Source of the DNA: Verrucomicrobiota bacterium
GTDB lineage: Bacteria > Verrucomicrobiota > Verrucomicrobiia > Chthoniobacterales > UBA10450
Assembly: GCA_046734635.1 (NCBI GenBank)
Contig: JBKPRQ010000155.1
Location: forward strand, 1-57,252
Length of the DNA stretch: 57,252 bases
Reading direction: 5' to 3'
A program made the translations under genes and the position numbers. Shown piece by piece: positions 6,473 to 47,507 of this stretch. The first letter of the stretch is position 1. Each line of letters opens with the position of its first letter. The notes below the pieces were generated by a model. It saw only the letters and a list, made by a program, of their open reading frames with translations. It was not told where the DNA came from and made no database searches.

Positions 6473-7630
6473 CTATCGCTTTTGATAAACCTCGAGCGAG
6501 GTGACCACATCAAGTGCGCGTTGCAATACCGGATCGTGCGCTGGCGGCTTTTCCGGCGCGCGACCACGCCGTTGCTGCGCGGCCTCCGCCGCTTCAACCT
6601 CAGGATTTGTTCCGGCCAGCAGCGCTGCCTCGTTCATGTGCGGGCGGCCGGCTTCGTAAACAAACGGTCCCATTCCTTTTTCGCCGCTCATTTGGAAAAT
6701 CTGTCGCTTATCTGCTATCGACATTTCGACCGGCAGATCCGGCTTTATCCCATCGGGAAACAGTGGACGACCGTCGGGGGAAACCATTTCCGCGACGGCA
6801 ACACGCAGAATTTTGCCGCTCGGCAATGACAAATCGGAATATTCAGCTGCGCGACCAGCAGTCGTTTGCCCGATAAGCAGGGCCCTGTTGTAAAATCTCA
6901 GTGCAGCAGCCATCGCCTCGGCCGCCCCAACCGTATCGCTATCTGTGAGCACCATGACAAGGCCGCGAAACGCCGGATCACGTTCGGAATTAAAGACGCG
7001 GTCCTGACGTCCCGTGGGCTTGCGCAGGGTAAAAAGCGTTTTGCCTTTTGGAGAAAACCGCTTTGCAAATTCAGCGGCCAGCGGCAAATCATTCGTCGCC
7101 TGGCTGGCGCGAAGATCGACGATTACCGCGTTGATGTTTTTGGCGGCAAAATTGCTCAGACTCTTGTCCAACGCCTGAAGGTTAGCTGCGTTTAATGAGC
7201 CGACGCGCAAGTATCCGGTGTGCCCCCCGATGATCTCGCTGTAAGAGACGCTTGGCGCTTCTGCCGGAGCGTTCTCCTTGGCGGGCAAAAGCATGACCCC
7301 GCGCGGAAGCCGGACGACGAGACCCTCAACGGTCGCCCGATTCAACTCGGTATCTGTAATTGCATCCGGATTTGTAAAATTAGTTCTTAATAACGTGATG
7401 ACTGCCTGCAGGTCAGCCGCGCCTAACGAATTCACCACATCCTCCGTTGTTGGGCTGGCGAAGGGTGAAGGCGATGAGGGTGCGGATGGTCTTGCTGAAG
7501 CGGCGGGCCTGCCTGGCGGCATTGCAGTCGGCGGCGGAGTTTGCGCCAGCGCGTTTATCACCATGAAAAAGCTAATGAAGGACAACGACGTGAATTGAGA
7601 CATGGAAACAGATGCCGACCTATAGCGCAT
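6473..7630 (-). CDS. S41 (C-terminal processing peptidase) family homologue, secreted, probably catalytically inactive
   Basis: Signal peptide and Pro/Ser-rich linker, then an S41 core (GYLRVGSL..., AVIVDLRAS, VMVLTDSDTVGAAEAMAAALRFYNRALLIGQTTAGRA..., GIKPDLPVE). The Ser and Lys dyad positions read Gly and Arg (see finding). Confidence 0.75.
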   Translation of the reverse strand: MRYRSASVSMSQFTSLSFISFFMVINALAQTPPPTAMPPGRPAASARPSAPSSPSPFASPTTEDVVNSLGAADLQAVITLLRTNFTNPDAITDTELNRATVEGLVVRLPRGVMLLPAKENAPAEAPSVSYSEIIGGHTGYLRVGSLNAANLQALDKSLSNFAAKNINAVIVDLRASQATNDLPLAAEFAKRFSPKGKTLFTLRKPTGRQDRVFNSERDPAFRGLVMVLTDSDTVGAAEAMAAALRFYNRALLIGQTTAGRAAEYSDLSLPSGKILRVAVAEMVSPDGRPLFPDGIKPDLPVEMSIADKRQIFQMSGEKGMGPFVYEAGRPHMNEAALLAGTNPEVEAAEAAQQRRGRAPEKPPAHDPVLQRALDVVTSLEVYQKR

Positions 7631-7680
7631 TTTCTAATTGCACGAAAATTCGAAATCTGAATATCGGATTTGAGGTTCTA

Positions 7681-8949
7681 TCAACTGGTCACGCCGAGCG
7701 CAATGTCGTGCCGGTAGTGGCAGTTTTCGAAATGGATCCGGGAGACAGCCTCGTAAGCGCGGGTGCGAGCGGTTTCGAGCGTTGATCCGAGCGCTGTGAT
7801 CGCGAGAACGCGACCGCCGGCCGTCTTAACTTCGCCCTCGGCGCGCTTGGTACCGGCATGGAAAACCTGAACGTCTTCAAGCTTTGCTGCATCCGTGAGA
7901 CCAGAAATCGTTTTTCCAGTTTCGTATTTGCCAGGGTAACCACCCGATGCCAGCACGACGGTGACCGCAGCGCGTGTATCCCATTCAATCGCATACTTAC
8001 CAAGATTTCCATCAATCGTCGCTTCCAACAGCGGTAGCAGATCGGATTTCAGCCGGGGCAGAATCGCCTGTGTTTCCGGGTCGCCGAAACGGCAATTGAA
8101 CTCCAGCACACGGGCGCCATCGCTCGTGATTATCAGGCCGGGATAAAGAAGTCCGCGAAATGTGATTCCCTCTTGTAGAAGACCGCGTAGCAGCGGTTGC
8201 ATGATTTTCGTTTCGAATTGGGATTGCAGCTTCTTGGTCCAATTGTTGGCCGGACTGAACGCGCCCATCCCGCCCGTATTCGGGCCGTGATCGCCGTCCA
8301 GGGCGCGCTTGTGGTCACGCGCCGATTCCAGCAGACGATAACTGCTTCCATCCACCAGGGCGTGCAGTGAACATTCCGTTCCGCGCAGGAATTCCTCGAT
8401 CACGATGCGCCGCCCTGCATCACCAAAACGGCCCTGATTTATCATCTCGTCGATGGCGGACCTCGCCGCGGCAGCATCAGCGGCAATAATAACTCCTTTC
8501 CCCAGAGCAAGGCCATCTGCTTTGATCACAACGGGAAATTTCACCTGTTCGCAGTAATCCAGGGCTTCGCTGCTGCCGGAAAATGTTCTCGCCTTGGCGG
8601 TGGGAATTTTTTGTGCGCGCATCAGCTCTTTTGCGAAGATTTTGGACGCCTCAATGCGCGCTGCGGATTTCGTTGGCCCAAACGCGCGCAGCTTTTCAGC
8701 CGTGAATAGATCGACAATCCCGGTGGCAAGTGGATCGTCCGGACCGACCACGGTCAGATCGATACAATTCCCCTTCGCAAACCGAGCCAATGCGTGCAGA
8801 TCATTGGCTGAGATCGCAACGTTCTCGGCAATTTCGGAAGTGCCTGCGTTTCCTGGCGCGCAGAAAATTCGGTCCGCGCCTGAAGACTGTCGGAGTTTCC
8901 ACGCAAGCGCATGTTCACGGCCGCCGCTGCCAATGACGAGAATTTTCAT
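7681..8949 (-). CDS. purD: Phosphoribosylamine--glycine ligase
   Basis: MKILVIGSGGREHALAWKL, an ATP-grasp core, and ...GPNTGGMGAFSP... over 422 aa. Confidence 0.95.
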   Translation of the reverse strand: MKILVIGSGGREHALAWKLRQSSGADRIFCAPGNAGTSEIAENVAISANDLHALARFAKGNCIDLTVVGPDDPLATGIVDLFTAEKLRAFGPTKSAARIEASKIFAKELMRAQKIPTAKARTFSGSSEALDYCEQVKFPVVIKADGLALGKGVIIAADAAAARSAIDEMINQGRFGDAGRRIVIEEFLRGTECSLHALVDGSSYRLLESARDHKRALDGDHGPNTGGMGAFSPANNWTKKLQSQFETKIMQPLLRGLLQEGITFRGLLYPGLIITSDGARVLEFNCRFGDPETQAILPRLKSDLLPLLEATIDGNLGKYAIEWDTRAAVTVVLASGGYPGKYETGKTISGLTDAAKLEDVQVFHAGTKRAEGEVKTAGGRVLAITALGSTLETARTRAYEAVSRIHFENCHYRHDIALGVTS

Positions 8950-9041
8950 TGCGAATCAGTTTTGACTGTAGAGGTAGCCGACTCGGCTGCAATTCTTTCG
9001 AACATCGCAGTAGCACGCCTGCCAATGTGTTGCGAGAAGGG

Positions 9042-10145
9042 TTACTCGGACCGCGATTCCGCCGGTAAGATCGGCAACTCCAGCTTCTCAGTGTGGCGAA
9101 TCACTGTGAGCGTGGCGCTCACGCCAATTTGTTCGCCGACCAAAACTTTGTGTAAATGATGCACGCTCCCGATTGGCTGATCGCCGAATGCAATAATCAG
9201 ATCACCTTCGCGCAATCCAGTACGCTCCGCAGGACTGTTCTTTTCGACTGAAACGACGAGGACAGCCGTCTCGAGAGGCAAACCATAAAATCGGATGATG
9301 CGGCGGTGAATTGGAACGTTTTGCCCAGCTACGCCGATGTAACCACGCCGGATTCGACCGTCGCGGATGAGCCATCCAGCAACTAACTTGGCTGTGTTAC
9401 TTGCGATGGCGAAACAGATGCCTTGAGCGGGTCGAATCATCGCTGTGTTTACGCCCACCACCTCGCCGGCTGAATTGACCAGTGGCCCACCGGAGTTGCC
9501 TGGGTTCAAGGCAGCGTCGGTCTGAATAATGTTATCAATCAATCGGCCCGATTGCGCGTGCATCGAGCGACCAAGTGCGCTGATCACGCCAGCGGTGACG
9601 CTCGCCTGGAAACCGAGCGGATTTCCAATCGCGACCACGAGTTGGCCTACACGCAAGCTCTCGGAGTCGGCGAGACGCACGTGAGTGAGTTGCGGCGCAT
9701 CGATGCGAATCACGGCCAGGTCAGTGTCCGGATCGTCGCCCGTCACTCGGGCCGGATATTCGCGCCCATCGGGCAAATTTACAGTGATGGAATTTGCCGC
9801 GTGAACGACGTGGCTGTTGGTCAGAATGAACCCGTCAGGCGCGATGATGAAACCCGACCCGTTGCCGCTGAGCTCGCGCGTTCCGCGCTGACCGTTGACG
9901 CGTTGCTTGACGTCGATGTTCACAACGGCTGGCGAAACACGCGCCACGGCACTCACGACAGTGCGCGAAAAGGCATCGAGCAAGGCCGAATCGTCCTGGC
10001 CCACTGCGGGGATATCGAGGTTCCTGCTCGCCCGTGATGGAGGAGGTTCCGTCTCATTTAAGACAAAATCCATCGAGACGGCGTTTTCCTTCGTAGGAGA
10101 TAAAATTGTCATACCCAAATTTCGGATGGCCAACCCATCAGTCAA
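9042..10145 (-). CDS. HtrA/DegP-family trypsin-like serine protease with PDZ domain
   Basis: Catalytic triad contexts LTNSHVV (His), DLAVIRI (Asp) and GNSGGPLVN (Ser), plus a C-terminal PDZ (GLREGDLIIAFGDQPI). The true start may be an internal Met. Confidence 0.85.
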   Translation of the reverse strand: MTDGLAIRNLGMTILSPTKENAVSMDFVLNETEPPPSRASRNLDIPAVGQDDSALLDAFSRTVVSAVARVSPAVVNIDVKQRVNGQRGTRELSGNGSGFIIAPDGFILTNSHVVHAANSITVNLPDGREYPARVTGDDPDTDLAVIRIDAPQLTHVRLADSESLRVGQLVVAIGNPLGFQASVTAGVISALGRSMHAQSGRLIDNIIQTDAALNPGNSGGPLVNSAGEVVGVNTAMIRPAQGICFAIASNTAKLVAGWLIRDGRIRRGYIGVAGQNVPIHRRIIRFYGLPLETAVLVVSVEKNSPAERTGLREGDLIIAFGDQPIGSVHHLHKVLVGEQIGVSATLTVIRHTEKLELPILPAESRSE

Positions 10146-10685: not shown

Positions 10686-12269
10686 ATGCATCAAGCGGAA
10701 ATCATTGTTCTTCTGTTCACGGTAGTCGCGGCTTCGGTGTTCATCGCCCGCAAGATGGCGCTGCCGTACCCGGTAGTGCTGGTGCTTGTTGGGTTGGTCT
10801 TGAGTTTCATTCCCCGTCTACCGGAGGTGAAACTGGATCCAAACATCGTTTTCTATTTCTTTTTGCCGCCACTGCTTTATCCAGCCGCCTTGTTCACTTC
10901 GTGGCGCGATTTTCGGCGAAATCTGCGGCCGATTGTTCTGCTCGCCATCGGCCTGGTGCTTTTCACGATGATCGTGGTCGCCTGCGTGGCGCACGCGATC
11001 ATTCCGTCTCTGCCGTGGGCGGCGGCGTTTGCCCTCGGTGCAATCGTTTCTCCTCCTGATGCGGTTGCGGCCACGAGTGTGATTCGCCGCCTCGCGGTGC
11101 CCCACCGGATCGTAAGCATCCTGGAAGGTGAAAGCTTGTTGAACGATGCGACAGCATTGGTGGCGTTACAATTCGCGGTGGCAGCGCTCGTGACGGGCAA
11201 ATTCTCAATTGGCCAGGCGTCGTTGCGTTTTGTCTGGGCTGCGGCCGGCGGAATTGGATTTGGCTTGCTCGTTGGTTTCGCGATTCGATGGGTGCATCGA
11301 CATCTCGACGATCCGCCGGTGCAAATCACTATTTCGTTGCTCACGCCGTTTCTCGCGTACCTGCCGGCGGAGCGCTTGCACGCTTCAGGTGTTCTGGCTG
11401 TTGTTGCCTCCGGAATTTATCTGGGCTGGCACTCGCCGTTGATTGTTACCGCACGCTATCGTCTGCAGGCGTTTGCCTTTTGGGAAATCGTCGTATTCCT
11501 TCTGAACGGTTTCGTTTTTACGGCTATCGGTCTGCAACTGCCGGCAATCCTTCGGTCGCTCAGAGGCGAGTCTCTTCTTTCGCCAATTGAAAACGCGCTT
11601 CTCGTGAGCGCCGCGGTGGTGCTGGTGCGGATCGCGTGGGTTTTTCCCGGTGCATATCTACCTTTTCTGCTGAACAAGGAACTCCGGGTACGCGAGCCTC
11701 TGCCCGAGTGGCAAAATGTGCTGATCATGGCCTGGTCGGGAATGCGCGGCGTGGTCTCGCTGGCGGCAGCGTTTGCGCTTCCCTACATCTTGCCGGACGG
11801 CAGCCCGTTCCCAGGAAGAAATTACATTTTGTTTCTGACTTTCTCTGTGATTTTGGTGACGCTGTTATTCCAGGGCCTGACGCTACCGATCGTAATCCGG
11901 AAACTTTGCATCAAAGCCGATGATTCAACGGACGAAGAAGAACGAACGGCACGGTTAAAAGCCAACAAGGCGGCAATCGAATTGATCGAAAAGGTTCGTG
12001 CCAACGGCGAGTTTTCGCCCGATACCGTGGATCGCTTACGTGCTGAGTACGACGAACGCCTGGAACAATTACAACTTTGCGCCGAGAACCCCGACGATTG
12101 TCGCGGCGAAATCGCCACGCCGCAATATCAGCGTTTGCAACGCGAAGCGCTGAGTGTTGAAAGGCAGACGATCATCCGTTTGCGAAACGAACGGGTGATC
12201 AATGACGACGCGTTGCGACGGATTCAGCGCGACCTCGATCTGGCCGAAGCGCGCCTGACAGGAAGCTGA
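10686..12269 (+). CDS. Na+/H+ antiporter (CPA1 / NhaP-type) with C-terminal cytoplasmic coiled-coil tail
   Basis: MHQAEIIVLLFTVVAASVFIARKMALPYPVVLVLVGL..., 11-12 TM segments, ESLLNDATALV and WSGMRGVVSLAAA motifs. The track start at 10515 translates the upstream repeat, so I prefer ATG 10686 (or 10668). Confidence 0.85.
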   Translation: MHQAEIIVLLFTVVAASVFIARKMALPYPVVLVLVGLVLSFIPRLPEVKLDPNIVFYFFLPPLLYPAALFTSWRDFRRNLRPIVLLAIGLVLFTMIVVACVAHAIIPSLPWAAAFALGAIVSPPDAVAATSVIRRLAVPHRIVSILEGESLLNDATALVALQFAVAALVTGKFSIGQASLRFVWAAAGGIGFGLLVGFAIRWVHRHLDDPPVQITISLLTPFLAYLPAERLHASGVLAVVASGIYLGWHSPLIVTARYRLQAFAFWEIVVFLLNGFVFTAIGLQLPAILRSLRGESLLSPIENALLVSAAVVLVRIAWVFPGAYLPFLLNKELRVREPLPEWQNVLIMAWSGMRGVVSLAAAFALPYILPDGSPFPGRNYILFLTFSVILVTLLFQGLTLPIVIRKLCIKADDSTDEEERTARLKANKAAIELIEKVRANGEFSPDTVDRLRAEYDERLEQLQLCAENPDDCRGEIATPQYQRLQREALSVERQTIIRLRNERVINDDALRRIQRDLDLAEARLTGS

Positions 12270-12277
12270 AAGTAGAG

Positions 12278-13168
12278 TTACGAAAAACCGTATCGTGCGG
12301 GCCAATCTCTGGCTGGCCCGCCGAGCCGCGCTGCGCAGGTCTTCAGTTCCTTCTTGAAGAACTTGGCGAGATGCGATCGTACACTATTTGTAAGGGGAAG
12401 CTTTTCCATCTTGGTCCAACTGTTGTAATCCGCCGGCAATCGGCTACTGGGCTTGTCTGGATCAGCGCCCAGGAAACGAACAATCGAGCGGCGCAATTCA
12501 GCCGGATTGCTTTGCAGGTCGTCAAAGAAATAAACGCGAAACTGCTCTGGACGGACATGACGTTTCCATCGCGCGACGACAGCACTCGGATACGAACGCA
12601 AGAGCATTCCCCGACGGAGCAAATTCCGATCGAGTTCGTCGATATTCGTTGGGTCAAACGCCTCGATCTGTCGGTAATGCACTTCCATCGACAAATGCGA
12701 CCAGACTCGCTCAACTGGATCGCGCGCCAGAAAGATCACCTTTAAGTTTGGGAAGTATCCGACGATCTGCCTGATGATTTCATCATTCAGCGTTGAGTAA
12801 TTTGGCGAGATATCGCCTGAAAGAAGCGATGCCTTGGGCTCAAACAATCTGCCGTAATTCTCGAGGTCGATACCCGGTTCAGCGCTAAGTTTCTTGAGCC
12901 CTTCCAGAAATCGAAGGTCGCGCTCGTCTCTGCGGCGCGGACCACCTCCCCGTTGAACTCTGCTCAGTTGATCGAAGTAATGCAATTCCTTTACCGGAGG
13001 CATCCAGAAATCCGGGTGCGAATCGAGCTGCTGATAAAGCCAGGTTGTTCCTGCCTTGTGAGCGCCGACGCACAAAAAATCAGGCCGCGCATTGCTCGCA
13101 GGAGCTTCGTTTCTGTCCTTATACCTGCCGTCGGTGCGCCGCGTCTTGAATGGCCAATCCCATTTCAC
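12278..13168 (-). CDS. Sulfotransferase family protein (paralogue 1)
   Basis: PAPS-binding 5'-PSB-like motif FLCVGAHKAGTTWLYQQL and 3'-PB-like VIFLARDPVERVWS; 296 aa. Confidence 0.8.
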   Translation of the reverse strand: MKWDWPFKTRRTDGRYKDRNEAPASNARPDFLCVGAHKAGTTWLYQQLDSHPDFWMPPVKELHYFDQLSRVQRGGGPRRRDERDLRFLEGLKKLSAEPGIDLENYGRLFEPKASLLSGDISPNYSTLNDEIIRQIVGYFPNLKVIFLARDPVERVWSHLSMEVHYRQIEAFDPTNIDELDRNLLRRGMLLRSYPSAVVARWKRHVRPEQFRVYFFDDLQSNPAELRRSIVRFLGADPDKPSSRLPADYNSWTKMEKLPLTNSVRSHLAKFFKKELKTCAARLGGPARDWPARYGFS

Positions 13169-13254
13169 GTCTCATTGTTTCCTCTTTGGAATTCATGGTA
13201 AGCGCACCGCGTTGCAATGCATCCCAGCGGTGACCGCAGCGCGCCGTCGCTACG

Positions 13255-14271
13255 TCAGGCGACCCAATCAACCCAGAAAAAGATATCCAAGTCATCCATC
13301 AGCTGCACAGCAAGAACGAGCAACGAAAAACCATATCGCGCAGGCCAGTGTTTCGCCGGGCCGCCGAGTTCTTCGGCGCAGGCTTTCAATTCCTGTTCAA
13401 AAAACTGTGCGACCCGTGATCTTACCTTATCGGTAAGTTGAAGCTTTTCCTTTCCGGCATCCCAGTTCTGCTCTGCCGTGCATCGACCGCTTGGTTTGTC
13501 CGGGTCTGCGCCTAGAAACAGGAGGATCGAACGACGTAGATCCGCCGGATTCTTTTTCAAATCATCGAAGAAATAGATGCGGAAGAGCGCTGGACGAACG
13601 TAGCGTTTCCAGCGCGCGACGATTTGACTGGGATACGACCGCAGGAACACTCCGGGGTTCAGTAAATTTCGTATTACCGCATCTGCATCGGTAGCATCGA
13701 AAGGGCCGATATTTCCCAGGCGTACGCCCATTGAAAGCTGCGACCACGCTCTCTCAACAGGATCACGGGCCAAAAAAATCACTTTCAAATTAGGAAAACG
13801 AACCACGATCTGTTCGATAATCTCATCACTCAGCATGGAGTAAGCTGGCGTGATGTCACCGGAAAGGAGCGCGCCCTTGGATTCGAACAGCCGCGAATAG
13901 GCGTCTAAGTCAATATGTGACTGCGTACCGAGCGCCGTCATTTTCTGCAGAAAGCACTGATCGCGCGCGTCCTTGCAACGGGGAGGGCTGCCCCGCTTGA
14001 CCTTGCTCAGCGCGTCGAAGTAATGCAGTTCCTTTACGGGAGGCATCCAGAAATCCGCGTGCCAGCTCAGTTGATAATAAAGCCACGAGGTCCCACCTTT
14101 CTGAGCTCCGACGCATAAGAAATCAGGGTGCGGATCGCAATTTGCATGGCCACCGTTTAAGTTAATGTGGTCGTTACCGACGCGAGATTTGAATGGCAAG
14201 GGCAGGGACACGGGCGCATTATTTTCCATTGCCCGGTCAAAAGGCAAGACCGGAACACCGGGCAGGCTCAC
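13255..14271 (-). CDS. Sulfotransferase family protein (paralogue 2)
   Basis: FLCVGAQKGGTSWLYYQL and VIFLARDPVERAWS. It is collinear and highly similar to 12278-13168 over the whole catalytic domain. It has extra N-terminal residues and a roughly 22-aa C-terminal tail after the shared ...WPARYGFS end. Confidence 0.8.
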   Translation of the reverse strand: MSLPGVPVLPFDRAMENNAPVSLPLPFKSRVGNDHINLNGGHANCDPHPDFLCVGAQKGGTSWLYYQLSWHADFWMPPVKELHYFDALSKVKRGSPPRCKDARDQCFLQKMTALGTQSHIDLDAYSRLFESKGALLSGDITPAYSMLSDEIIEQIVVRFPNLKVIFLARDPVERAWSQLSMGVRLGNIGPFDATDADAVIRNLLNPGVFLRSYPSQIVARWKRYVRPALFRIYFFDDLKKNPADLRRSILLFLGADPDKPSGRCTAEQNWDAGKEKLQLTDKVRSRVAQFFEQELKACAEELGGPAKHWPARYGFSLLVLAVQLMDDLDIFFWVDWVA

Positions 14272-41332: not shown

Positions 41333-41965
41333 ATGAAAAAGTCTCTGTCTACAATGCTTGCATTGACCCTGGCGTTTCCGATTGCGGCCCTCGCACAAGG
41401 CACAATGAAAATCGGAACAGTTGATATGCAGCGCGCGTTCAAGGAATACAACAAGACCAAGGAAGCCGAAGTAAAAATTAATGACGCCAAAAATTCCGCC
41501 AAAAAAGAATACGATGATCGAGCGGAGGCTTACAAAAAGGCCTTGGACGAAATCAATAATCTGAACAAGCAGCTGGAGTCGCCAGCCCTGAGCGCAGATA
41601 AGAAGACTCAAACGGCAAAGGAACGGGACGACAAGATCGCCAACATCAAAAACATGGAGCGTGAGATCAGCGATTTCCGTCAAACTCGCGAACGACAATT
41701 ACAGGAACAGTTGATGCGCGTGCGAGAAGGAATCGTTAAGGAAATCACCGATGTGGTGCTGGAGAAGGTAAAAACCAATCATTTCGATATGGTGTTCGAC
41801 AAATCGGGCATGAGCATTAACGGTGTCCCGATCTTGTTGTATGCGCCGGACAATGTCGATTTTACCAACGACATCATCGCCGTGCTCAACAAGCCAGGAC
41901 GCGCTGCAAGCTCAACTGCGAAAGCAAATCCATCAGCCAGCCCGGCAAAGGCCGCCAAGCCTTAA
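41333..41965 (+). CDS. skp: OmpH/Skp-family periplasmic chaperone
   Basis: Signal peptide, KIGTVDMQRAFKEY, and long Lys/Glu coiled-coil arms. It lies directly downstream of bamA. Confidence 0.85.
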   Translation: MKKSLSTMLALTLAFPIAALAQGTMKIGTVDMQRAFKEYNKTKEAEVKINDAKNSAKKEYDDRAEAYKKALDEINNLNKQLESPALSADKKTQTAKERDDKIANIKNMEREISDFRQTRERQLQEQLMRVREGIVKEITDVVLEKVKTNHFDMVFDKSGMSINGVPILLYAPDNVDFTNDIIAVLNKPGRAASSTAKANPSASPAKAAKP

Positions 41966-42944: not shown

Positions 42945-43679
42945 TCACTCGGGCACCCATTCGCCGCGAACTGGCGGACCGGGCGGGGGACGCCAACGTC
43001 TGTGGGAGGGATCGTAAAATGGTTGACGTGGTTGCGGTAACAACCGAAGCGCGGCGAGCGTTTGCAGATCAAGCCGGCCTGTCACCGGAAGTTGTGTCCG
43101 TGCTTGATACGCTCGCAGGGAAAACTCCATTGCCGGCCCGTAGATTCCATTGACCTCTTCCTGATAAAGTCCCCGCCGCGCCAGCGCGATTTGAGCAGAA
43201 ACAATCACATTGTGTTGCACCTCGGGCGGGGCAGCTTCAAAAGGCGTCTGCGCGAGGACTCCGGCCGCAGAAGTAGGTGGGGCGACCGGGTTGGAGGGAT
43301 ACACTTGCTGCTCTTGCGGCGCATTCGTAAAAGGCTCGACAGGTGGCGGCGTTACGTTCGTTCCTCCGATTGGCGATTGTTCGGCAGGTTTGGATAAAGC
43401 GGGGCCGGGTGACGCAGGCTTTGCCGCCGTTTGGGGAGAAGAAGAGTTAACTCCCAGCGACTGAATCGTCTCACCGTTGAGCTGACCGTTGACCTGCAGT
43501 CCACTGCGAATTTGATAACGACGAATGGCCGCCGTTAAATCCGAACTCGTCTGACCGGTGATCTCACCGTAGTAAAAGCCCTGGTCTTTCAAGGCTTGCT
43601 GCACTTTTTCAATCATCTGGTCCGCTTGCGCCAGCATAAGCGAGCCAAGGAAGATCAGCGCAGCGATCCTGGCCTTCAT
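42945..43679 (-). CDS. Secreted protein with two peptidoglycan-binding (PG_binding_1) domains
   Basis: Signal peptide, LKDQGFYYGEITGQTSSDLTAAIRRYQIRSGLQVNGQLNGETIQSLG, a Pro-rich linker, then LARRGLYQEEVNGIYGPAMEFSLRAYQARTQLPVTGRLDLQTLAAL. Confidence 0.8.
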   Translation of the reverse strand: MKARIAALIFLGSLMLAQADQMIEKVQQALKDQGFYYGEITGQTSSDLTAAIRRYQIRSGLQVNGQLNGETIQSLGVNSSSPQTAAKPASPGPALSKPAEQSPIGGTNVTPPPVEPFTNAPQEQQVYPSNPVAPPTSAAGVLAQTPFEAAPPEVQHNVIVSAQIALARRGLYQEEVNGIYGPAMEFSLRAYQARTQLPVTGRLDLQTLAALRLLPQPRQPFYDPSHRRWRPPPGPPVRGEWVPE

Positions 43680-43711
43680 TGTGATGTTATTTTGACGCCC
43701 TTGTTTTCCGT

Positions 43712-44512
43712 CTATTCAGCGCTCTCCCGAATTGTTACCGCCAACGTTGGTTTCCGCTGATTCATCGCATCGCGATAACGCAAAATACCGTCAGCAACGG
43801 CTGCGGCGATCTGGTCGCGGTAATCTTCGCTTACAAGTTTGGAAATATCTTCCTTGTTGGTCAGAAATCCTCCTTCGATCAAGACGGCAGGGGAAGTCAC
43901 GTTTGCGATCACAAAAAATTGTCCGGGCTGTGTGCCACGATTATTGGCCCGTGTGCGTGCGACCAGAGCTTCTTGAATGAATCCAGCAAGGCTTTGACTT
44001 TCAGGATTCGGCGACTCGGAGAGTGGTCGCCATAAAAAAGGCAGCCACGAAGCGACAGAAGACCCGGTGGTGATTTGATGCGAGGCATAGTAAGTCTCCA
44101 CCCCGCTGGCGACCGGTTTGTTGTCTTCGTTGAAATGAATGCTGACGAAAATGCAATTTCTGATGCGATTAGCGAACGCCGCGCGATCTGCCAGCGAGAC
44201 ATAAGTATCTCCCAGGCGAGTCATCAATGTCGCGATTCCTTCGGAGTCGAGTAATCGATCAATTCGTCGTGCCACGTCGAGAGCGAGATCTTTTTCGAGT
44301 AAGCCTCCGCACATTGCACCGGAATCCTGCCCTCCGTGCCCGGGATCAAGAACGACTACTGCAAACGGACCGGCTGCAGCCGCGGGCTGCGCTGGTCTCG
44401 GCTCTGTGGCAGCCGACTTAGCTCTTTCCGTCTGGTCGAACTGCATCCAGACGAAAGACGCCATCATCACCAACAAGCCAGAGAGAGCCAGGATATTCCG
44501 AAGCGATTTCAC
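43712..44512 (-). CDS. N-acetylmuramoyl-L-alanine amidase (Amidase_3, AmiC-like)
   Basis: VVLDPGHGGQDSGA, SIHFN, and VLIEGGFLTNKED; signal peptide present. Confidence 0.85.
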   Translation of the reverse strand: MKSLRNILALSGLLVMMASFVWMQFDQTERAKSAATEPRPAQPAAAAGPFAVVVLDPGHGGQDSGAMCGGLLEKDLALDVARRIDRLLDSEGIATLMTRLGDTYVSLADRAAFANRIRNCIFVSIHFNEDNKPVASGVETYYASHQITTGSSVASWLPFLWRPLSESPNPESQSLAGFIQEALVARTRANNRGTQPGQFFVIANVTSPAVLIEGGFLTNKEDISKLVSEDYRDQIAAAVADGILRYRDAMNQRKPTLAVTIRESAE

Positions 44513-44546: not shown

Positions 44547-45326
44547 TTAGTCGCGGATCAAGGGACGTAATTCATTGTCTGACAGCGAACGATAGCGAAT
44601 TGCGCGGCCGGCGTCACGCTCAAGCAATGCCCCTTCGATTGCAGCATTGGCGAGCTGTTCCTGTAGATGTTTTCTTACGGCCGCGCGCTCTGGTGGTTCC
44701 TTTGTATCGGTGGTTTGTAAAGTCATATGCCCGATGCTCCATGCATCGAGCGCGGAGTTGAACGCTGTCTCGAGGTTGGCGCCCGTCGCGTGCTGCGTCG
44801 CAAGAAATGTTTCCATCAGCTCTCTCGACTGCTGTGTCCCGCTGAGTGCAGCGAAGTCCCGCCGCGCTTGAGCGTGCGTTGCGCCGTTGGTCGCAATCTC
44901 ACCGTCGTATTCTACTCGTAAAAACAAATCCCCCTCGGGATGTTGTGCGACCTCCGCAAAGAGCATTCGCGCTAGGTATGGTGGCCCATAAATCTGTTCA
45001 AATGCGGTCTTCATGACCGGACTGAGCGAGTAATGCACGAGCCGTCGCAACGAAACATCCGCCGCGGAACGGGTGAAGCCTTCAGTGCTCGCCAGTTCGA
45101 TCGCCGCCATTCGCAGTCGTTCGATGTCGCCGGGATGACCAATCGCACCCATCCCAATCCGGTCGTAGATCTCAAAAATCTTCTGGCGCGTCTGGCCGAG
45201 CGTAACAAACAAAATACCGTCGCGAAAACCCAGCGCTGCGATTGGACTGCCCGGAGCGAGCTGCGCTTCGATATACTCGCGACGATTCGCGATCGCTTCG
45301 ACCCAACGATACGGTTCTTCAATCAT
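44547..45326 (-). CDS. prcA: 20S proteasome alpha subunit (bacterial PrcA type)
   Basis: MIEEPYRWVEAIANRREYIEAQLAPGSPIAALGFRDGILFVTLG...KIFEIYDRIGMGAIGHPGD... is collinear with actinobacterial PrcA as I recall it (PY..E.A...R.E...IA...VAL.Y..GVLFV...KI.E.YDR.GFAAAG). Its start overlaps the prcB stop (ATGA). Confidence 0.8.
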   Translation of the reverse strand: MIEEPYRWVEAIANRREYIEAQLAPGSPIAALGFRDGILFVTLGQTRQKIFEIYDRIGMGAIGHPGDIERLRMAAIELASTEGFTRSAADVSLRRLVHYSLSPVMKTAFEQIYGPPYLARMLFAEVAQHPEGDLFLRVEYDGEIATNGATHAQARRDFAALSGTQQSRELMETFLATQHATGANLETAFNSALDAWSIGHMTLQTTDTKEPPERAAVRKHLQEQLANAAIEGALLERDAGRAIRYRSLSDNELRPLIRD

Positions 45327-46147
45327 GCAACCGTTTCCTTGAACACCGCGGCAATTTTGCTCTCCGGCAACGTTGTGATTCCTTCGCGCGATACAATCTT
45401 GATAAGCGGATAAATCTTTCCACTGCGATCGACGCCGCCTGTCGATGTGTCGGATTCCGCAGCGGTATCCAATGCGCGCAACGCGATAGATACCGCTTCG
45501 TCATCGCCCAATTCAAGTAGCGGCTTTGCTCCCCAATTGTTTTCGTAATAAAGAATGCCGCGCACCGCCGGCGATCCCGACCCCGTCGCTGCGTAATCAG
45601 TTACTTCAAATTGTGCGCCCATTGCGTCGTAAAAATAAAGACGCGCCTCGGGCTTGGGATGAGAATCGTATGTCGCAAAGATCGGCACCACGACCCCCAC
45701 GCCCTGCATGACGAACCCGAAATTGTCGCGCAACAGCTTGGATAGGGCGCGCACTTTTCCGTCTACGCTCATTTCCTGCAGTTGTGTTCGCCGAAAGTAT
45801 TGGAATGAGTGTTCGAGCACGCGCGCCATTTCCCACGCCGTTGCCGGCACACCAGCAATCGCCATGATCGAGTGCCGATCAATCTCCAAAACCTTGTCGG
45901 CGCGATCATACACGACCGTGTTACCAGCTGTCGCCCGACGGTCGCCGGCGACGAGGACGCCGCCTGAAAATTTGAAAGCGAGAATCGTGGTTGCTTCCGT
46001 TGGCTGCCAGCTCTTTTGGGAAGTCCCTGCCTGGGGTAGAGGATTTACAGCCGCCGGAGCGAGCAGGCCTTCGCGGCGCAGCAGCGCAGGGAAATCGCCG
46101 GCTGCGCCAGAGAAATTCTGGTCAAACGCCACCTGGGAGCGCTCCAT
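45323..46147 (-). CDS. prcB: 20S proteasome beta subunit with propeptide (PrcB type)
   Basis: A 52-aa propeptide, then the mature N-terminus TTILAFKFSGGVLVAGDRRATAGNTVVYDRADKV, giving Thr1, Asp17 and Lys33. TGSGS lies further on. The track start at 46381 is rejected; Met at 46147 overlaps the stop of the upstream small ORF (TAATG). Confidence 0.85.
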   Translation of the reverse strand: MERSQVAFDQNFSGAAGDFPALLRREGLLAPAAVNPLPQAGTSQKSWQPTEATTILAFKFSGGVLVAGDRRATAGNTVVYDRADKVLEIDRHSIMAIAGVPATAWEMARVLEHSFQYFRRTQLQEMSVDGKVRALSKLLRDNFGFVMQGVGVVVPIFATYDSHPKPEARLYFYDAMGAQFEVTDYAATGSGSPAVRGILYYENNWGAKPLLELGDDEAVSIALRALDTAAESDTSTGGVDRSGKIYPLIKIVSREGITTLPESKIAAVFKETVA

Positions 46148-46323
46148 TATTGGCCGGTGCGCTGGCGATAGCGCTTGGATTGATTTGGATCCACCTTGCG
46201 CATTTTTTTTAAGAGATCCTTCGTGTCCGGCCGTGAAACGTCCGGTGAACGTGGACCTCCACCATCGCCTTGTTTTGGACCCCAGGGAGCCGGTTCTGCA
46301 GGTTTTTGAATGCGCTCGGGCAT
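46147..46323 (-). CDS. Pup/UBact-like small protein modifier candidate (58 aa)
   Basis: MPERIQKPAEPAPWGPKQGDGGGPRSPDVSRPDTKDLLKKMRKVDPNQSKRYRQRTGQ*. The N-terminal half looks disordered, the C-terminal half is a basic helix, and it ends in Gly-Gln. It lies immediately 5' of prcB and is coupled to it. It is hidden inside a 130-aa track ORF. Confidence 0.6.
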   Translation of the reverse strand: MPERIQKPAEPAPWGPKQGDGGGPRSPDVSRPDTKDLLKKMRKVDPNQSKRYRQRTGQ

Positions 46324-46473
46324 AAAAAAATCTAAGAGCAAATATTGGAAAGGCAAGCTGTCGCGTCGCATGATTCGCCAACTCGTTACAATTAACACCG
46401 GATTTCCGTTCAACGATTCAATGTGGCGAAGGCGCTTGCCAGACAAATCCGCTGATGGCAAAGTTTTGCCCCG

Positions 46474-46953
46474 ATGAAGCTCGCATTGATTTTTTGTGCG
46501 ACGGTCCTTTTCGGATTGCTTTGCCCGATTTCGGCTCAAACGGAAGCGCCGAAATCTCGGAAATCAGATCATGCCACTCAACTTGAAGCGTTGGCGAAAA
46601 AGATAGACGAACAGAATGCGAAGATTGATGCGCTTTCTCAGGAGATTCTCAAGCTGGAACAGCAAATCGCACACATGCGACCGGGTGTAATGATCGGAGA
46701 AAGCACGCCGTCGGCAGCCAGTCCTGCCGCTGCGGTCGCCGCCGGATCTTCACCACATCCGGCTGGCGCAAATACGCACATCGTCTCACGCGGTGAGACA
46801 CTCACTTCGATCGCGAAAATGTACAAGGTGACTGTGGATGAATTGCAGGCGGCCAATCACATCGAAGATGGCCGTAAGCTGCAGGCGGGACAGACCATCA
46901 TGATCCCCGCTGCGTCGCCGGCGGCCTCCAGTTCGCCGTCGCCAACAGAATAG
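46474..46953 (+). CDS. Secreted LysM domain protein
   Basis: Signal peptide, a short coiled coil, an Ala/Pro/Ser linker, then LysM: HIVSRGETLTSIAKMYKVTVDELQAANHIEDGRKLQAGQTIMIP. Confidence 0.8.
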   Translation: MKLALIFCATVLFGLLCPISAQTEAPKSRKSDHATQLEALAKKIDEQNAKIDALSQEILKLEQQIAHMRPGVMIGESTPSAASPAAAVAAGSSPHPAGANTHIVSRGETLTSIAKMYKVTVDELQAANHIEDGRKLQAGQTIMIPAASPAASSSPSPTE

Positions 46954-46958
46954 AGCTC

Positions 46959-47507
46959 GTGAATCCAAGCTGGTTTCTGCGCAAACACGAAGATGGAAGC
47001 ACCTTTGGCCCGGTGCGTTTTGATCAAATCGCGCGCTGGGCTGCAGCTGCGCAAATCGCGCCCCACGATACGCTTTCTAACGATCGGCAGAGCTGGGTGA
47101 AAGCGCCGATGCTGCCTCAGCTCGGTATGGACTGGTTGGTTGAACTCACGAGCGAGCATTATTACGGACCGACAACCCTGGGCGCGCTCCAGGAATTTAT
47201 CCGGCTCGGCGAAATCGATAGCGAGACCGAGGTCATCAACACCCGCAATGGCGCGCGTTGCAAGATTCAGGAAATGCCGCAGCTCTGGGAAAGCGGAGAA
47301 GCAGATGCCCTGGATGCCCAGACTGAAATTCAACTGGGCGATCCTATCGGACCAACAGTGGCCAGAATGTCGATTCGTCTCCGGGAGCAGATTCGTGATC
47401 TCGAACGGAGCTTGGAAGAAGAGCGCCGCGCTCTGATCGAAGCGGAGCGACGATACGCTGAGCTAAAAGAAAAATACGAAGCGGCTATTCAGGGTGCCGG
47501 AACCTGA
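46959..47507 (+). CDS. GYF_2 (DUF4339)-like repeat protein
   Basis: GTG start. Two W...GP......I......G.I......V.......W......P.L modules (WFLRKHEDGSTFGPVRFDQI...; WLVELTSEHYYGPTTLGALQEFIRLGEI...) and a C-terminal coiled coil. Confidence 0.6.
   Translation: MNPSWFLRKHEDGSTFGPVRFDQIARWAAAAQIAPHDTLSNDRQSWVKAPMLPQLGMDWLVELTSEHYYGPTTLGALQEFIRLGEIDSETEVINTRNGARCKIQEMPQLWESGEADALDAQTEIQLGDPIGPTVARMSIRLREQIRDLERSLEEERRALIEAERRYAELKEKYEAAIQGAGT

Follow-up and report, generated by a model that had tools for sequence, protein, structure and literature searches.

A UBact-PrcB-PrcA gene trio in a Candidatus Udaeobacter-like verrucomicrobium, the probable tag and protease module of a dispersed UBact-proteasome system

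Why should what appears to be a Gram-negative genome carry a 20S proteasome of actinobacterial type, and which partners would such a particle work with? The question is raised by two adjacent genes in a contig of 57,252 nucleotides (the window, by which the whole stretch analysed is meant), read in a first-pass annotation as an actinobacterial-type prcB-prcA pair in a PVC-like background. The features on which the answer depends are as follows.

46147-46323, minus strand: UBact, a Pup-like modifier, MPERIQK...RYRQRTGQ (58 aa; PF20513, NF033388)
45323-46147, minus strand: prcB, 20S proteasome beta precursor (274 aa; matches to PF00227, TIGR03690 and the Mycobacterium tuberculosis and Rhodococcus PrcB)
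45992-46147, minus strand: PrcB propeptide (52 aa)
45989-45991, minus strand: codon of the PrcB catalytic residue Thr1
45941-45943, minus strand: codon of the PrcB catalytic residue Asp17
45893-45895, minus strand: codon of the PrcB catalytic residue Lys33
44547-45326, minus strand: prcA, 20S proteasome alpha (259 aa; matches to TIGR03691, PF00227 and PrcA chains of the PDB)

The coordinates first given for the pair were exact, with both genes on the minus strand and the prcA ATG overlapping the prcB TGA as ATGA at 45323-45326. The same annotation had mentioned UBact as a possible companion of such pairs and had left unnoticed that UBact is the next gene upstream, lying directly before prcB, with its stop overlapping the prcB start as TAATG. 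UBact, PrcB and PrcA are thus encoded by three translationally coupled genes, the beta subunit having a complete Thr1/Asp17/Lys33 active site, and PrcA directly follows PrcB in all 82 of the 82 loci with enough flank.

Assignment of the pair to true alpha and beta subunits of the bacterial PrcB/PrcA type, rather than to Anbu, BPH or HslV, is supported by profile and structure-database matches. In the Pfam search that had been proposed as a check, PrcB scores 102.6 bits against PF00227 and PrcA 24.2 bits, the cut-off being 22.4. That PrcA barely passes would fit a single-ring homologue (Anbu, BPH or HslV) mistaken for an alpha/beta pair, a reading to which we give practically no chance: HslV models reach 26-31 bits on PrcB (cut-offs 137-158) against 170.2 bits for its top NCBIfam family, TIGR03690 (bacterial 20S beta), no Anbu, BPH or HslV chain occurs among its top 60 PDB matches, PrcA matches only the bacterial 20S alpha subunit in NCBIfam and the PDB, and there are two distinct adjacent subunit genes with UBact in front. 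Specifically, the sole NCBIfam match of PrcA is TIGR03691 (77.6 bits over residues 11-257), and its PDB matches are confined to the M. tuberculosis and Rhodococcus PrcA (1e-14 with the single sequence; 5e-19 with profile A5, residues 11-205). For PrcB, likewise, the PrcB chains of M. tuberculosis and Rhodococcus rank first in the PDB, at about 1e-29. The archaeal 20S proteasome (Thermoplasma alpha and beta) is of the same Ntn-hydrolase family and has the same catalytic residues and, like the pair, two subunit types, but resembles it much less: the archaeal beta family scores 91 bits on PrcB and the best archaeal beta chain 5e-14, while no archaeal alpha chain in the PDB matches PrcA at E <= 0.01 with either single sequence or profile. 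AF2 monomer predictions were unusable because the alignments were too shallow, with a pLDDT of 39.7 for PrcB (25 aligned sequences, all at least 85% identical) and of 37.8 for PrcA, modelled without an alignment.

The description of the pair as actinobacterial-type holds in part. While the best matches are indeed actinobacterial PrcB and PrcA, both subunits, unlike their actinobacterial counterparts, fall below the NCBI equivalog cut-offs (170.2 against 191.9 bits for TIGR03690; 77.6 against 139.05 bits for TIGR03691), and therefore belong with a divergent Gram-negative subcluster rather than with the actinobacterial family proper. In being nearest to actinobacterial PrcB and PrcA and yet forming a divergent group, they resemble the subcluster of Gram-negative 20S alpha and beta subunits already described (Fuchs et al., 2017, PMC5666114). 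The resemblance of the two products to proteasome subunits goes well beyond chance. Matches to PrcB are numerous, with more than 4,700 database proteins at E <= 1e-10 and more than 100 clusters 83-95% identical to it, all of the same 274-aa length; an exact-sequence look-up returned no identical record.

PrcB begins MERSQVAF... and carries a 52-residue propeptide ending ...QPTEA, after which the sequence continues TTILAFKFSGGVLVAGDRRATAGNTVVYDRADKV. The propeptide length and the placement of the catalytic residues, both claimed from the outset, are borne out by alignment with M. tuberculosis PrcB, in which Thr1, Asp17 and Lys33 are paired with the same residues here; alignment with the M. tuberculosis and Rhodococcus proteins spans the propeptide, from its residue 19, as well as the catalytic residues. 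The M. tuberculosis alignment and the relatives also reveal Gly47 (G99), a GSGS motif holding Ser129, and Asp166/Thr169/Gly170 (ESDTSTGG). Comparison with 25 relatives shows no variation in columns T53, D69, K85, S190 and D233 and at least 90% conservation of G99. The cleavage site reads EA/TT, with Ala at -1 instead of the usual G/TT, and the positioning of Gly(-1) matters for autolysis in yeast (PMC4792962), both of which would suit a catalytically dead or non-processing relic. We regard such a relic as very improbable, given that Ala or Ser occupies -1 in 7 of 14 canonical UBact-type and 4 of 14 actinobacterial-like PrcBs and that every catalytic residue is invariant in relatives. Almost every window-type locus has Ala or Ser at this position, and the verrucomicrobial locus L083 has Gly; the counts in the two comparison sets led to the rejection of Ala(-1) as a lineage-specific trait.

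The UBact assignment is clear, with 82.1 bits against PF20513 (cut-off 27.8) and 84.5 bits against NF033388 (cut-off 35). Its C-terminal RTGQ conforms to an R-[TS]-G-[QE] motif found in 108 of the 150 family representatives listed. Among the 45 closest loci, identity to the protein is 91-100% in 44 and 88% in one. Like Pup, UBact has a terminal Gln, a sign that deamidation precedes ligation; unlike Pup, with its GGQ end, it belongs to the UBact family. The same gene has already been called UBact in one related locus (L002). Elsewhere, annotation errors hide it: the gene is not called, PrcB starts are placed too far upstream and so span it, and a beta subunit is labelled alpha. The searchable literature apparently contains no experimentally characterised UBact system.

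As to the host, the initial proposal of a diderm, non-actinobacterial organism on the strength of bamA, skp, tatC and a futalosine-pathway gene was upheld. BamA (TIGR03303, 549 bits), TatC (TIGR00945, 169 bits) and MqnC (TIGR03699, 488 bits) models all score above their cut-offs in the window, and homologues of the ORF at 41333-41965 carry the Skp/OmpH domain PF03938. The closest named relative of PrcB is 92% identical and comes from a MAG of Candidatus Udaeobacter (Verrucomicrobiota), in which the gene order is conserved over 20 kb, and the best 80 genome loci are all from Udaeobacter, Chthoniobacterales or Verrucomicrobiota. By these sequence comparisons, the host is a diderm, non-actinobacterial soil verrucomicrobium of the Ca. 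Udaeobacter/Chthoniobacterales lineage, and the supposed PVC-like genome with a 20S pair is accordingly verrucomicrobial. Contamination with actinobacterial DNA, or an island acquired by recent transfer, might be suspected, as the closest solved relatives are actinobacterial and an ancient transfer of the proteasome from Actinobacteria to Gram-negative phyla has been proposed (PMC5666114). This suspicion, exceedingly improbable in our estimation, is refuted by a flat GC content (0.53-0.58 across 42-50 kb), by the same neighbours in dozens of independent verrucomicrobial assemblies, and by the low identity to the M. tuberculosis proteins together with the separate Gram-negative subcluster. The ancient transfer remains the accepted origin.

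The trio is in conserved synteny with cell-wall genes, and four neighbours are of particular relevance.

42945-43679, minus strand: secreted PG_binding_1 protein (PF01471, 87.5 bits)
43712-44512, minus strand: Amidase_3, a secreted N-acetylmuramoyl-L-alanine amidase (PF01520, 173.6 bits)
46474-46953, plus strand: secreted LysM protein (PF01476, 51 bits)
46959-47507, plus strand: cytoplasmic GYF_2 protein (PF14237, 35 bits)

The amidase gene lies 35 nt downstream of prcA on the same strand, with no terminator-like site in the gap, and a promoter and terminator scan of 42.7-46.7 kb gave counts not above the shuffled expectation. Of the 77 loci with sufficient flank, 66 have an Amidase_3 gene downstream of prcA; the PG_binding_1 gene, next after the amidase and co-oriented with it, recurs in 71 of 74 loci, and the LysM gene, divergent from UBact, in 73 of 79. 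The N-termini of all three proteins are signal-peptide-like by eye. These three are therefore conserved neighbours of the trio, to which a functional tie is putative. The GYF_2 protein, whose C-terminal tail is heptad-like and probably a coiled coil (by eye), was detected in 43 of 79 loci. It directly adjoins UBact in the distant loci L085, L086 and L092, as judged by Pfam GYF_2, and in L089 tblastn placed a homologue of the window protein at the same position beside UBact. GYF_2 is thus a recurrent UBact neighbour, and any role for it is speculative.

Unlike canonical UBact loci, the window locus is without Mpa, Dop and PafA. The scanned ORFs of the 57-kb window include no PF03136 or Mpa-type gene, and tblastn with Mpa, Dop and PafA queries from verrucomicrobial locus L083 and from Chthoniobacterales loci gave no match within it. 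Across the 92 loci (1.54 Mb in total) covered by this partner search, the three genes were absent within about 10 kb of some 86 window-type loci, save for PafA in L086 and L089, both of which had been retrieved via PafA. In distant Chthoniobacterales loci, the large ORFs beside UBact or prcA were considered as candidates for Mpa, Dop or PafA and proved to encode phosphofructokinase, sulfite reductase, a TonB receptor and GlmS; a weak Mpa match in L007 was spurious (30 aa, E = 0.004).

The partners do occur elsewhere in the lineage. Firstly, PafA-type proteins named as Chthoniobacterales are 63-65% identical to the PafA of L083 and are without the Dop loop; their genes stand alone in L087, L088 and L090, while in L086 and L089 they are situated upstream of the GYF_2/UBact block, at a distance of about 2 kb. 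NCBIfam models are unable to separate PafA from Dop in these systems. Secondly, at least 14 metagenome loci contain an Mpa-Dop pair with no UBact, PrcB, PrcA or PafA in the available flank, which in four of them (L096, L111, L133 and L145) comprises the full 10 kb around the pair. Exact-sequence clusters of these Mpa and Dop proteins bear the names Dop [Chthoniobacterales bacterium] and Verrucomicrobia bacterium 13_2_20CM_54_12, with 1,106 and 2,310 members. Additionally, the GC content of the Mpa-Dop loci (0.53-0.55) matches that of the window (0.545). Judged from taxon names, abundance and GC across separate assemblies, one organism may encode all components. Since Mpa-Dop and PafA are not beside the trio, the picture is of an apparently complete system divided among two or three loci.

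Taken together, these data make it probable that the window contains the tag and protease module of a UBact-proteasome, with Mpa-Dop and PafA encoded elsewhere in a Ca. Udaeobacter-like verrucomicrobium. By analogy with the mycobacterial Pup-proteasome, PrcA and PrcB would assemble into an alpha7-beta7-beta7-alpha7 barrel, and the 52-residue propeptide would be removed autocatalytically to expose Thr1, the autolysis of proteasome beta subunits having been described mechanistically (PMC4792962). On the same model, and in keeping with the established mechanism of Dop, PafA and Mpa (PMC3511204), a Dop-type enzyme would deamidate the C-terminal Gln of UBact to Glu, a PafA-type ligase would join the resulting side-chain carboxylate to substrate lysines, and an Mpa-type AAA ATPase would recognise the tagged proteins and feed them to the 20S core. 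In this lineage Mpa and Dop form a two-gene locus of their own, the PafA gene is solitary or some 2 kb upstream of the trio, and the trio itself is set among conserved cell-envelope genes. The Mpa proteins of the lineage end in -GVI, unlike M. tuberculosis Mpa with its GQYL docking motif, and docking to the 20S core may therefore differ.

It is conceivable, if unlikely, that the trio operates independently of pupylation-type tagging, with the 20S core served by another activator or by no ATPase and UBact in another role, which might involve the GYF_2 protein or the co-oriented cell-wall genes. The physical uncoupling from Mpa, Dop and PafA in some 86 loci, the conserved synteny with Amidase_3, PG_binding_1, LysM and GYF_2, and an Mpa in the lineage that has no GQYL motif all point in this direction. 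Against it, UBact retains a ligation-competent R-T-G-Q end and the high identity noted above, and the lineage has abundant orthologues of Mpa, Dop and PafA. Moreover, the Amidase_3, PG_binding_1 and LysM proteins, with their signal-peptide-like N-termini, would be periplasmic while the proteasome is cytoplasmic, and a gene order shared within one bacterial order can be a matter of simple inheritance.

A UBact-proteasome system with separately encoded partners, the reading preferred here, has close precedents. Systems of this kind are already documented for verrucomicrobia (Iyer, 2008, PMC2588565; Fuchs, 2017, PMC5666114), and UBact-proteasome loci of Gram-negative phyla have been described by Lehmann et al. 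(2017, BBRC 483:946, as cited in PMC12751074). As in those UBact loci, the tag gene of the window immediately precedes prcB-prcA and its product ends in R-T-G-Q, and the host belongs to a phylum already on the list. As in the actinobacterial Pup system (M. tuberculosis Mpa-Dop-Pup-PrcB-PrcA ... PafA), the tag gene is immediately upstream of prcB-prcA and the beta precursor has a homologous propeptide and the Thr1/Asp17/Lys33 site. The presence of UBact and a Gram-negative proteasome in verrucomicrobia is thus already published and the finding essentially known, the separate placement of the ATPase, deamidase and ligase genes being the only feature that is unusual with respect to known systems. 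The canonical order Mpa-Dop-UBact-PrcB-PrcA-PafA is found in other verrucomicrobial and metagenomic loci (L083, L093, L094, L120, L121, L129 and L134-L136) and not in this lineage.

Beyond its layout, the system is an added member of a known family and introduces no new mechanism. There is a slim chance that a UBact-20S module cut loose from its partners and fixed in an operon-like block with the amidase and PG_binding_1 genes, beside the GYF_2 gene, signifies a changed regulatory logic. If so, possible examples are recognition of the proline-rich UBact N-terminus by the GYF_2 protein, joint control of the module and envelope remodelling, or a different mode of docking for Mpa, which ends in -GVI and not in GQYL. 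The dispersed layout itself contradicts older claims, according to which gene order in the Pup locus is 'rigidly conserved' and a PafA-family gene 'invariably' adjoins the Pup gene (PMC3511204, PMC2588565), as neither statement holds in the window. Genome mining that relies on neighbouring genes would thus overlook or mis-score this lineage, which ranks among the most abundant of soil bacteria worldwide and carries a proteasome and UBact tagging system that look complete.

Three adjoining genes make up the proteasome locus of the window:

46323 down to 46147, minus strand: UBact, 58 codons, directly upstream of prcB
46147 down to 45323, minus strand: prcB, 274 aa
45326 down to 44547, minus strand: prcA, 259 aa

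The first-pass annotation had placed prcB and prcA at these coordinates, with a 52-residue propeptide, active-site Thr1, Asp17 and Lys33, and an ATGA in which the prcA start codon overlaps the prcB stop, all of which translation, alignment and the sequence itself bear out. Specifically, the PrcB propeptide (MERSQVAF...WQPTEA) is followed by TTILAFKFSGGVLVAGDRRATAGNTVVYDRADKV, the Thr1 codon lies at 45989-45991, and the alignment to Mtb PrcB reaches into the propeptide, with Thr1, Asp17 and Lys33 falling on the Mtb residues. Gly47, a GSGS motif including Ser129, and Asp166/Thr169/Gly170 are also present, in columns conserved among relatives. In a mechanical ORF list prcB has 352 aa, with a TTG at 46381 as its start codon; the 274-aa reading is correct, since this form and its invariant N-terminus recur in more than 100 homologue clusters and the extension crosses another gene in a different frame. 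Alanine at position -1 of the cleavage site was considered as a lineage-specific trait and rejected, being common in other bacterial PrcBs too. AlphaFold models of both subunits are of very low confidence because the alignments are too shallow.

The UBact gene, overlooked in the first-pass annotation, encodes MPERIQKPAEPAPWGPKQGDGGGPRSPDVSRPDTKDLLKKMRKVDPNQSKRYRQRTGQ and scores 82 bits against Pfam UBact and 84.5 bits against NCBIfam NF033388 (cut-off 35). Among 1.84 billion representative proteins searched, its family comprises 158 clusters at 50% identity, with an R-[TS]-G-[QE] C-terminus in 108 of the 150 clusters listed. Its TAA stop and the ATG of prcB have one A in common and, given the overlap at both junctions, UBact, prcB and prcA form one translationally coupled unit of three genes. 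Public annotation obscures UBact in several ways (window 45323-46381, minus strand; database proteins P0010, P0029 and P0086; related locus L001): PrcB is over-extended across it in the 352-aa TTG-start ORF and in 320-aa database entries, the gene is uncalled in L001, and P0010, a beta subunit, is misnamed 'proteasome subunit alpha'.

Both subunits match Pfam PF00227 (PrcB, 102.6 bits; PrcA, 24.2 bits against a cut-off of 22.4). The best NCBIfam model for PrcB is TIGR03690, bacterial 20S beta (170.2 bits; curated cut-off 191.9), with archaeal beta at 91 bits and HslV at 26-31 bits, while the only model matched by PrcA is TIGR03691, bacterial 20S alpha (77.6 bits over residues 11-257; curated cut-off 139). 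The closest PDB relatives of PrcB are Mtb and Rhodococcus PrcB (~1e-29), followed by Thermoplasma beta (5e-14); PrcA matches Mtb and Rhodococcus PrcA only (1e-14 as a single sequence, 5e-19 as a nine-sequence profile). These NCBIfam scores and PDB matches exclude an Anbu, BPH or HslV identity, and the pair is, judged by sequence, a true alpha/beta 20S proteasome of bacterial type. That both score beneath the NCBI equivalog cut-offs fits the published finding that a separate Gram-negative subcluster (armatimonadetes, nitrospirae, verrucomicrobia) radiates from the actinobacterial one (PMC5666114).

The closest named PrcB, at 92% identity, belongs to a Candidatus Udaeobacter MAG, on a 1.7-Mb contig that is collinear with the window for 20 kb around the gene. 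With each GTDB species represented by one genome, a scan gave at least 579 stretches that code for a relative of UBact; the best 80 all come from Udaeobacter, Chthoniobacterales or Verrucomicrobiota MAGs. Additionally, BamA, TatC and MqnC of the window exceed curated cut-offs, and the GC profile of the region is flat. Together these data identify the host as a diderm verrucomicrobium and the cluster as native, neither contaminant nor recent island; the synteny and flat GC rule out an actinobacterial contig. The first-pass reading of a true 20S proteasome in a diderm, non-actinobacterial host is thus upheld.

Gene order around the trio is widely shared.

Neighbours of the trio, counted only in loci with enough flank
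PrcB, after UBact: 83/83
PrcA, after PrcB: 82/82
LysM gene, upstream, divergent: 73/79
GYF_2 gene, upstream: 43/79
Amidase_3 gene, after prcA, same strand: 66/77
PG_binding_1 gene, further downstream, same strand: 71/74
DUF3108 gene, further downstream: 58/71

Loci with more distantly related UBact types (L084, L085, L086, L091, L092) have the block too. In the window, secreted Amidase_3 and PG_binding_1 proteins follow prcA on the same strand (42945-44512, minus), and the 35 nt separating prcA from the amidase gene contain no terminator-like site; the three may form an operon or only reflect inherited gene order. Since the amidase, PG_binding_1 and LysM proteins carry signal-peptide-like N-termini (judged by eye), they have no evident direct link in function with a cytoplasmic protease, and the cell-wall neighbourhood is treated by default as inherited synteny unless shown otherwise. 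The divergently transcribed GYF_2-domain protein beside UBact (46959-47507, plus) is cytoplasmic, with a heptad-like C-terminal tail that is probably a coiled coil (judged by eye), and its gene still directly adjoins UBact in distant loci from which the LysM gene is gone (L085, L086, L089). Proline-rich peptides are ligands of GYF domains, and the N-terminal half of UBact is proline-rich.

Of 73 window ORFs with 150 aa or more, 45 were judged likely genes, and Pfam scans of these 45 detected neither a Pup_ligase nor an Mpa-type ATPase. The window lineage differs in this from L083, a locus of another verrucomicrobial lineage with the canonical order Mpa-Dop-UBact-PrcB-PrcA-PafA. In tblastn searches, L083 UBact, PrcB and PrcA match every UBact-bearing locus searched (~53-72% identity), and L083 Mpa, Dop and PafA have no match in the window or window-type loci. 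Lineage-specific Mpa, Dop and PafA queries over 92 loci (1.54 Mb) found none except in L083 and in L086-L090, five loci retrieved through PafA. Chthoniobacterales-named PafA-type proteins are 63-65% identical to L083 PafA and do not have the ~35-residue Dop loop; PafA is an orphan in L087, L088 and L090, and lies ~2 kb upstream of the GYF_2/UBact block in L086 and L089, which also carry the trio.

A metagenome scan with a reconstructed Dop as query retrieved loci of two kinds: six-gene clusters of the canonical type, in several lineages, and at least 14 loci with an Mpa-Dop pair, in whose available DNA UBact, PrcB, PrcA and PafA were not found (full 10-kb flanks in four: L096, L111, L133, L145). 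Dop and Mpa from these pair-only loci belong, by exact sequence, to 90%-identity clusters (one Dop cluster of 1,106 members; Mpa cluster of 2,310) with named members including depupylase/deamidase Dop [Chthoniobacterales bacterium] and Verrucomicrobia bacterium 13_2_20CM_54_12, and their GC (0.53-0.55) matches that of the window (0.545). Linked by taxon names, abundance and GC content, these loci are best read as parts of a UBact-proteasome system that is probably complete in the lineage and dispersed over two or three loci.

Several further observations concern the partner genes. Mpa-type ATPases of UBact lineages (L095-L097, L103, L106-L108, L111, L112, L114, L133, L145; L083 6500-8420) end in -GVI, -HVI or -VV with no penultimate tyrosine, unlike mycobacterial Mpa with its GQYL docking motif. 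Metagenomic locus L095 (7000-16953) has Mpa-Dop-UBact and no PrcB or PrcA in 5.4 kb downstream, and is either a further form of cluster division or a UBact system lacking a proteasome. In UBact systems, PafA and Dop are not told apart by NCBIfam models (L083 11872-13305; L086 10001-11410): the L083 gene downstream of prcA, without the Dop loop, scores 354 bits with the Dop model and 336 with the PafA model, both beneath cut-off. In L083 (925-kb contig; 6777-9994 and 11086-11875), Mpa, Dop and PrcA are interrupted by frameshifts, which may be assembly errors, pseudogenes being another possibility.

Elsewhere in the window are:

916-989: tRNA-Thr(CGT), the sole tRNA
12278-14271, minus strand: two adjoining sulfotransferase-family genes, 296 and 338 aa
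24337-25971, plus strand: 544-aa protein with an AAA_33 kinase-like P-loop domain at the C-terminus; no Pfam or NCBIfam family matches the N-terminal ~330 residues
28149-31156, minus strand: MeaB GTPase-B12-binding domain fusion (386 aa) adjoining a methylmalonyl-CoA-mutase-family catalytic subunit (616 aa), an IcmF-like system split in two genes

With gene identities, active-site residues, coupled arrangement, lineage and, in related genomes, separate Mpa-Dop and PafA loci established here, the steps of a mechanism can be modeled on the mycobacterial system (PMC3511204) and on proteasome autolysis (PMC4792962). By analogy, PrcA and PrcB would assemble into an alpha7-beta7-beta7-alpha7 core, the PrcB propeptide being removed via Thr1; the terminal Gln of UBact would be deamidated by a Dop-type enzyme and UBact ligated to lysines in a PafA-type reaction, and Mpa would unfold substrates into the core.

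Pup-proteasome neighbourhoods were described in verrucomicrobia, Chthoniobacter included, by Iyer, Burroughs and Aravind in 2008 (PMC2588565), and the Gram-negative subcluster, likely originating by transfer from Actinobacteria, by Fuchs et al. in 2017 (PMC5666114); Lehmann et al. (2017; BBRC 483:946), as far as its citation in PMC12751074 conveys, named UBact in Gram-negative phyla, together with the homologues of Mpa, Dop, PafA and the proteasome associated with it. Because these sources already hold the system, the first-pass interpretation is correct yet not new, and the locus is a further member of a described kind. However, two published statements fail at this locus, namely that a PafA-family gene invariably adjoins the Pup gene (Iyer et al., PMC2588565) and that gene order is rigidly conserved (Barandun et al., 2012; PMC3511204), and the modest twist is that a soil lineage of very high abundance has the genes in a dispersed layout.
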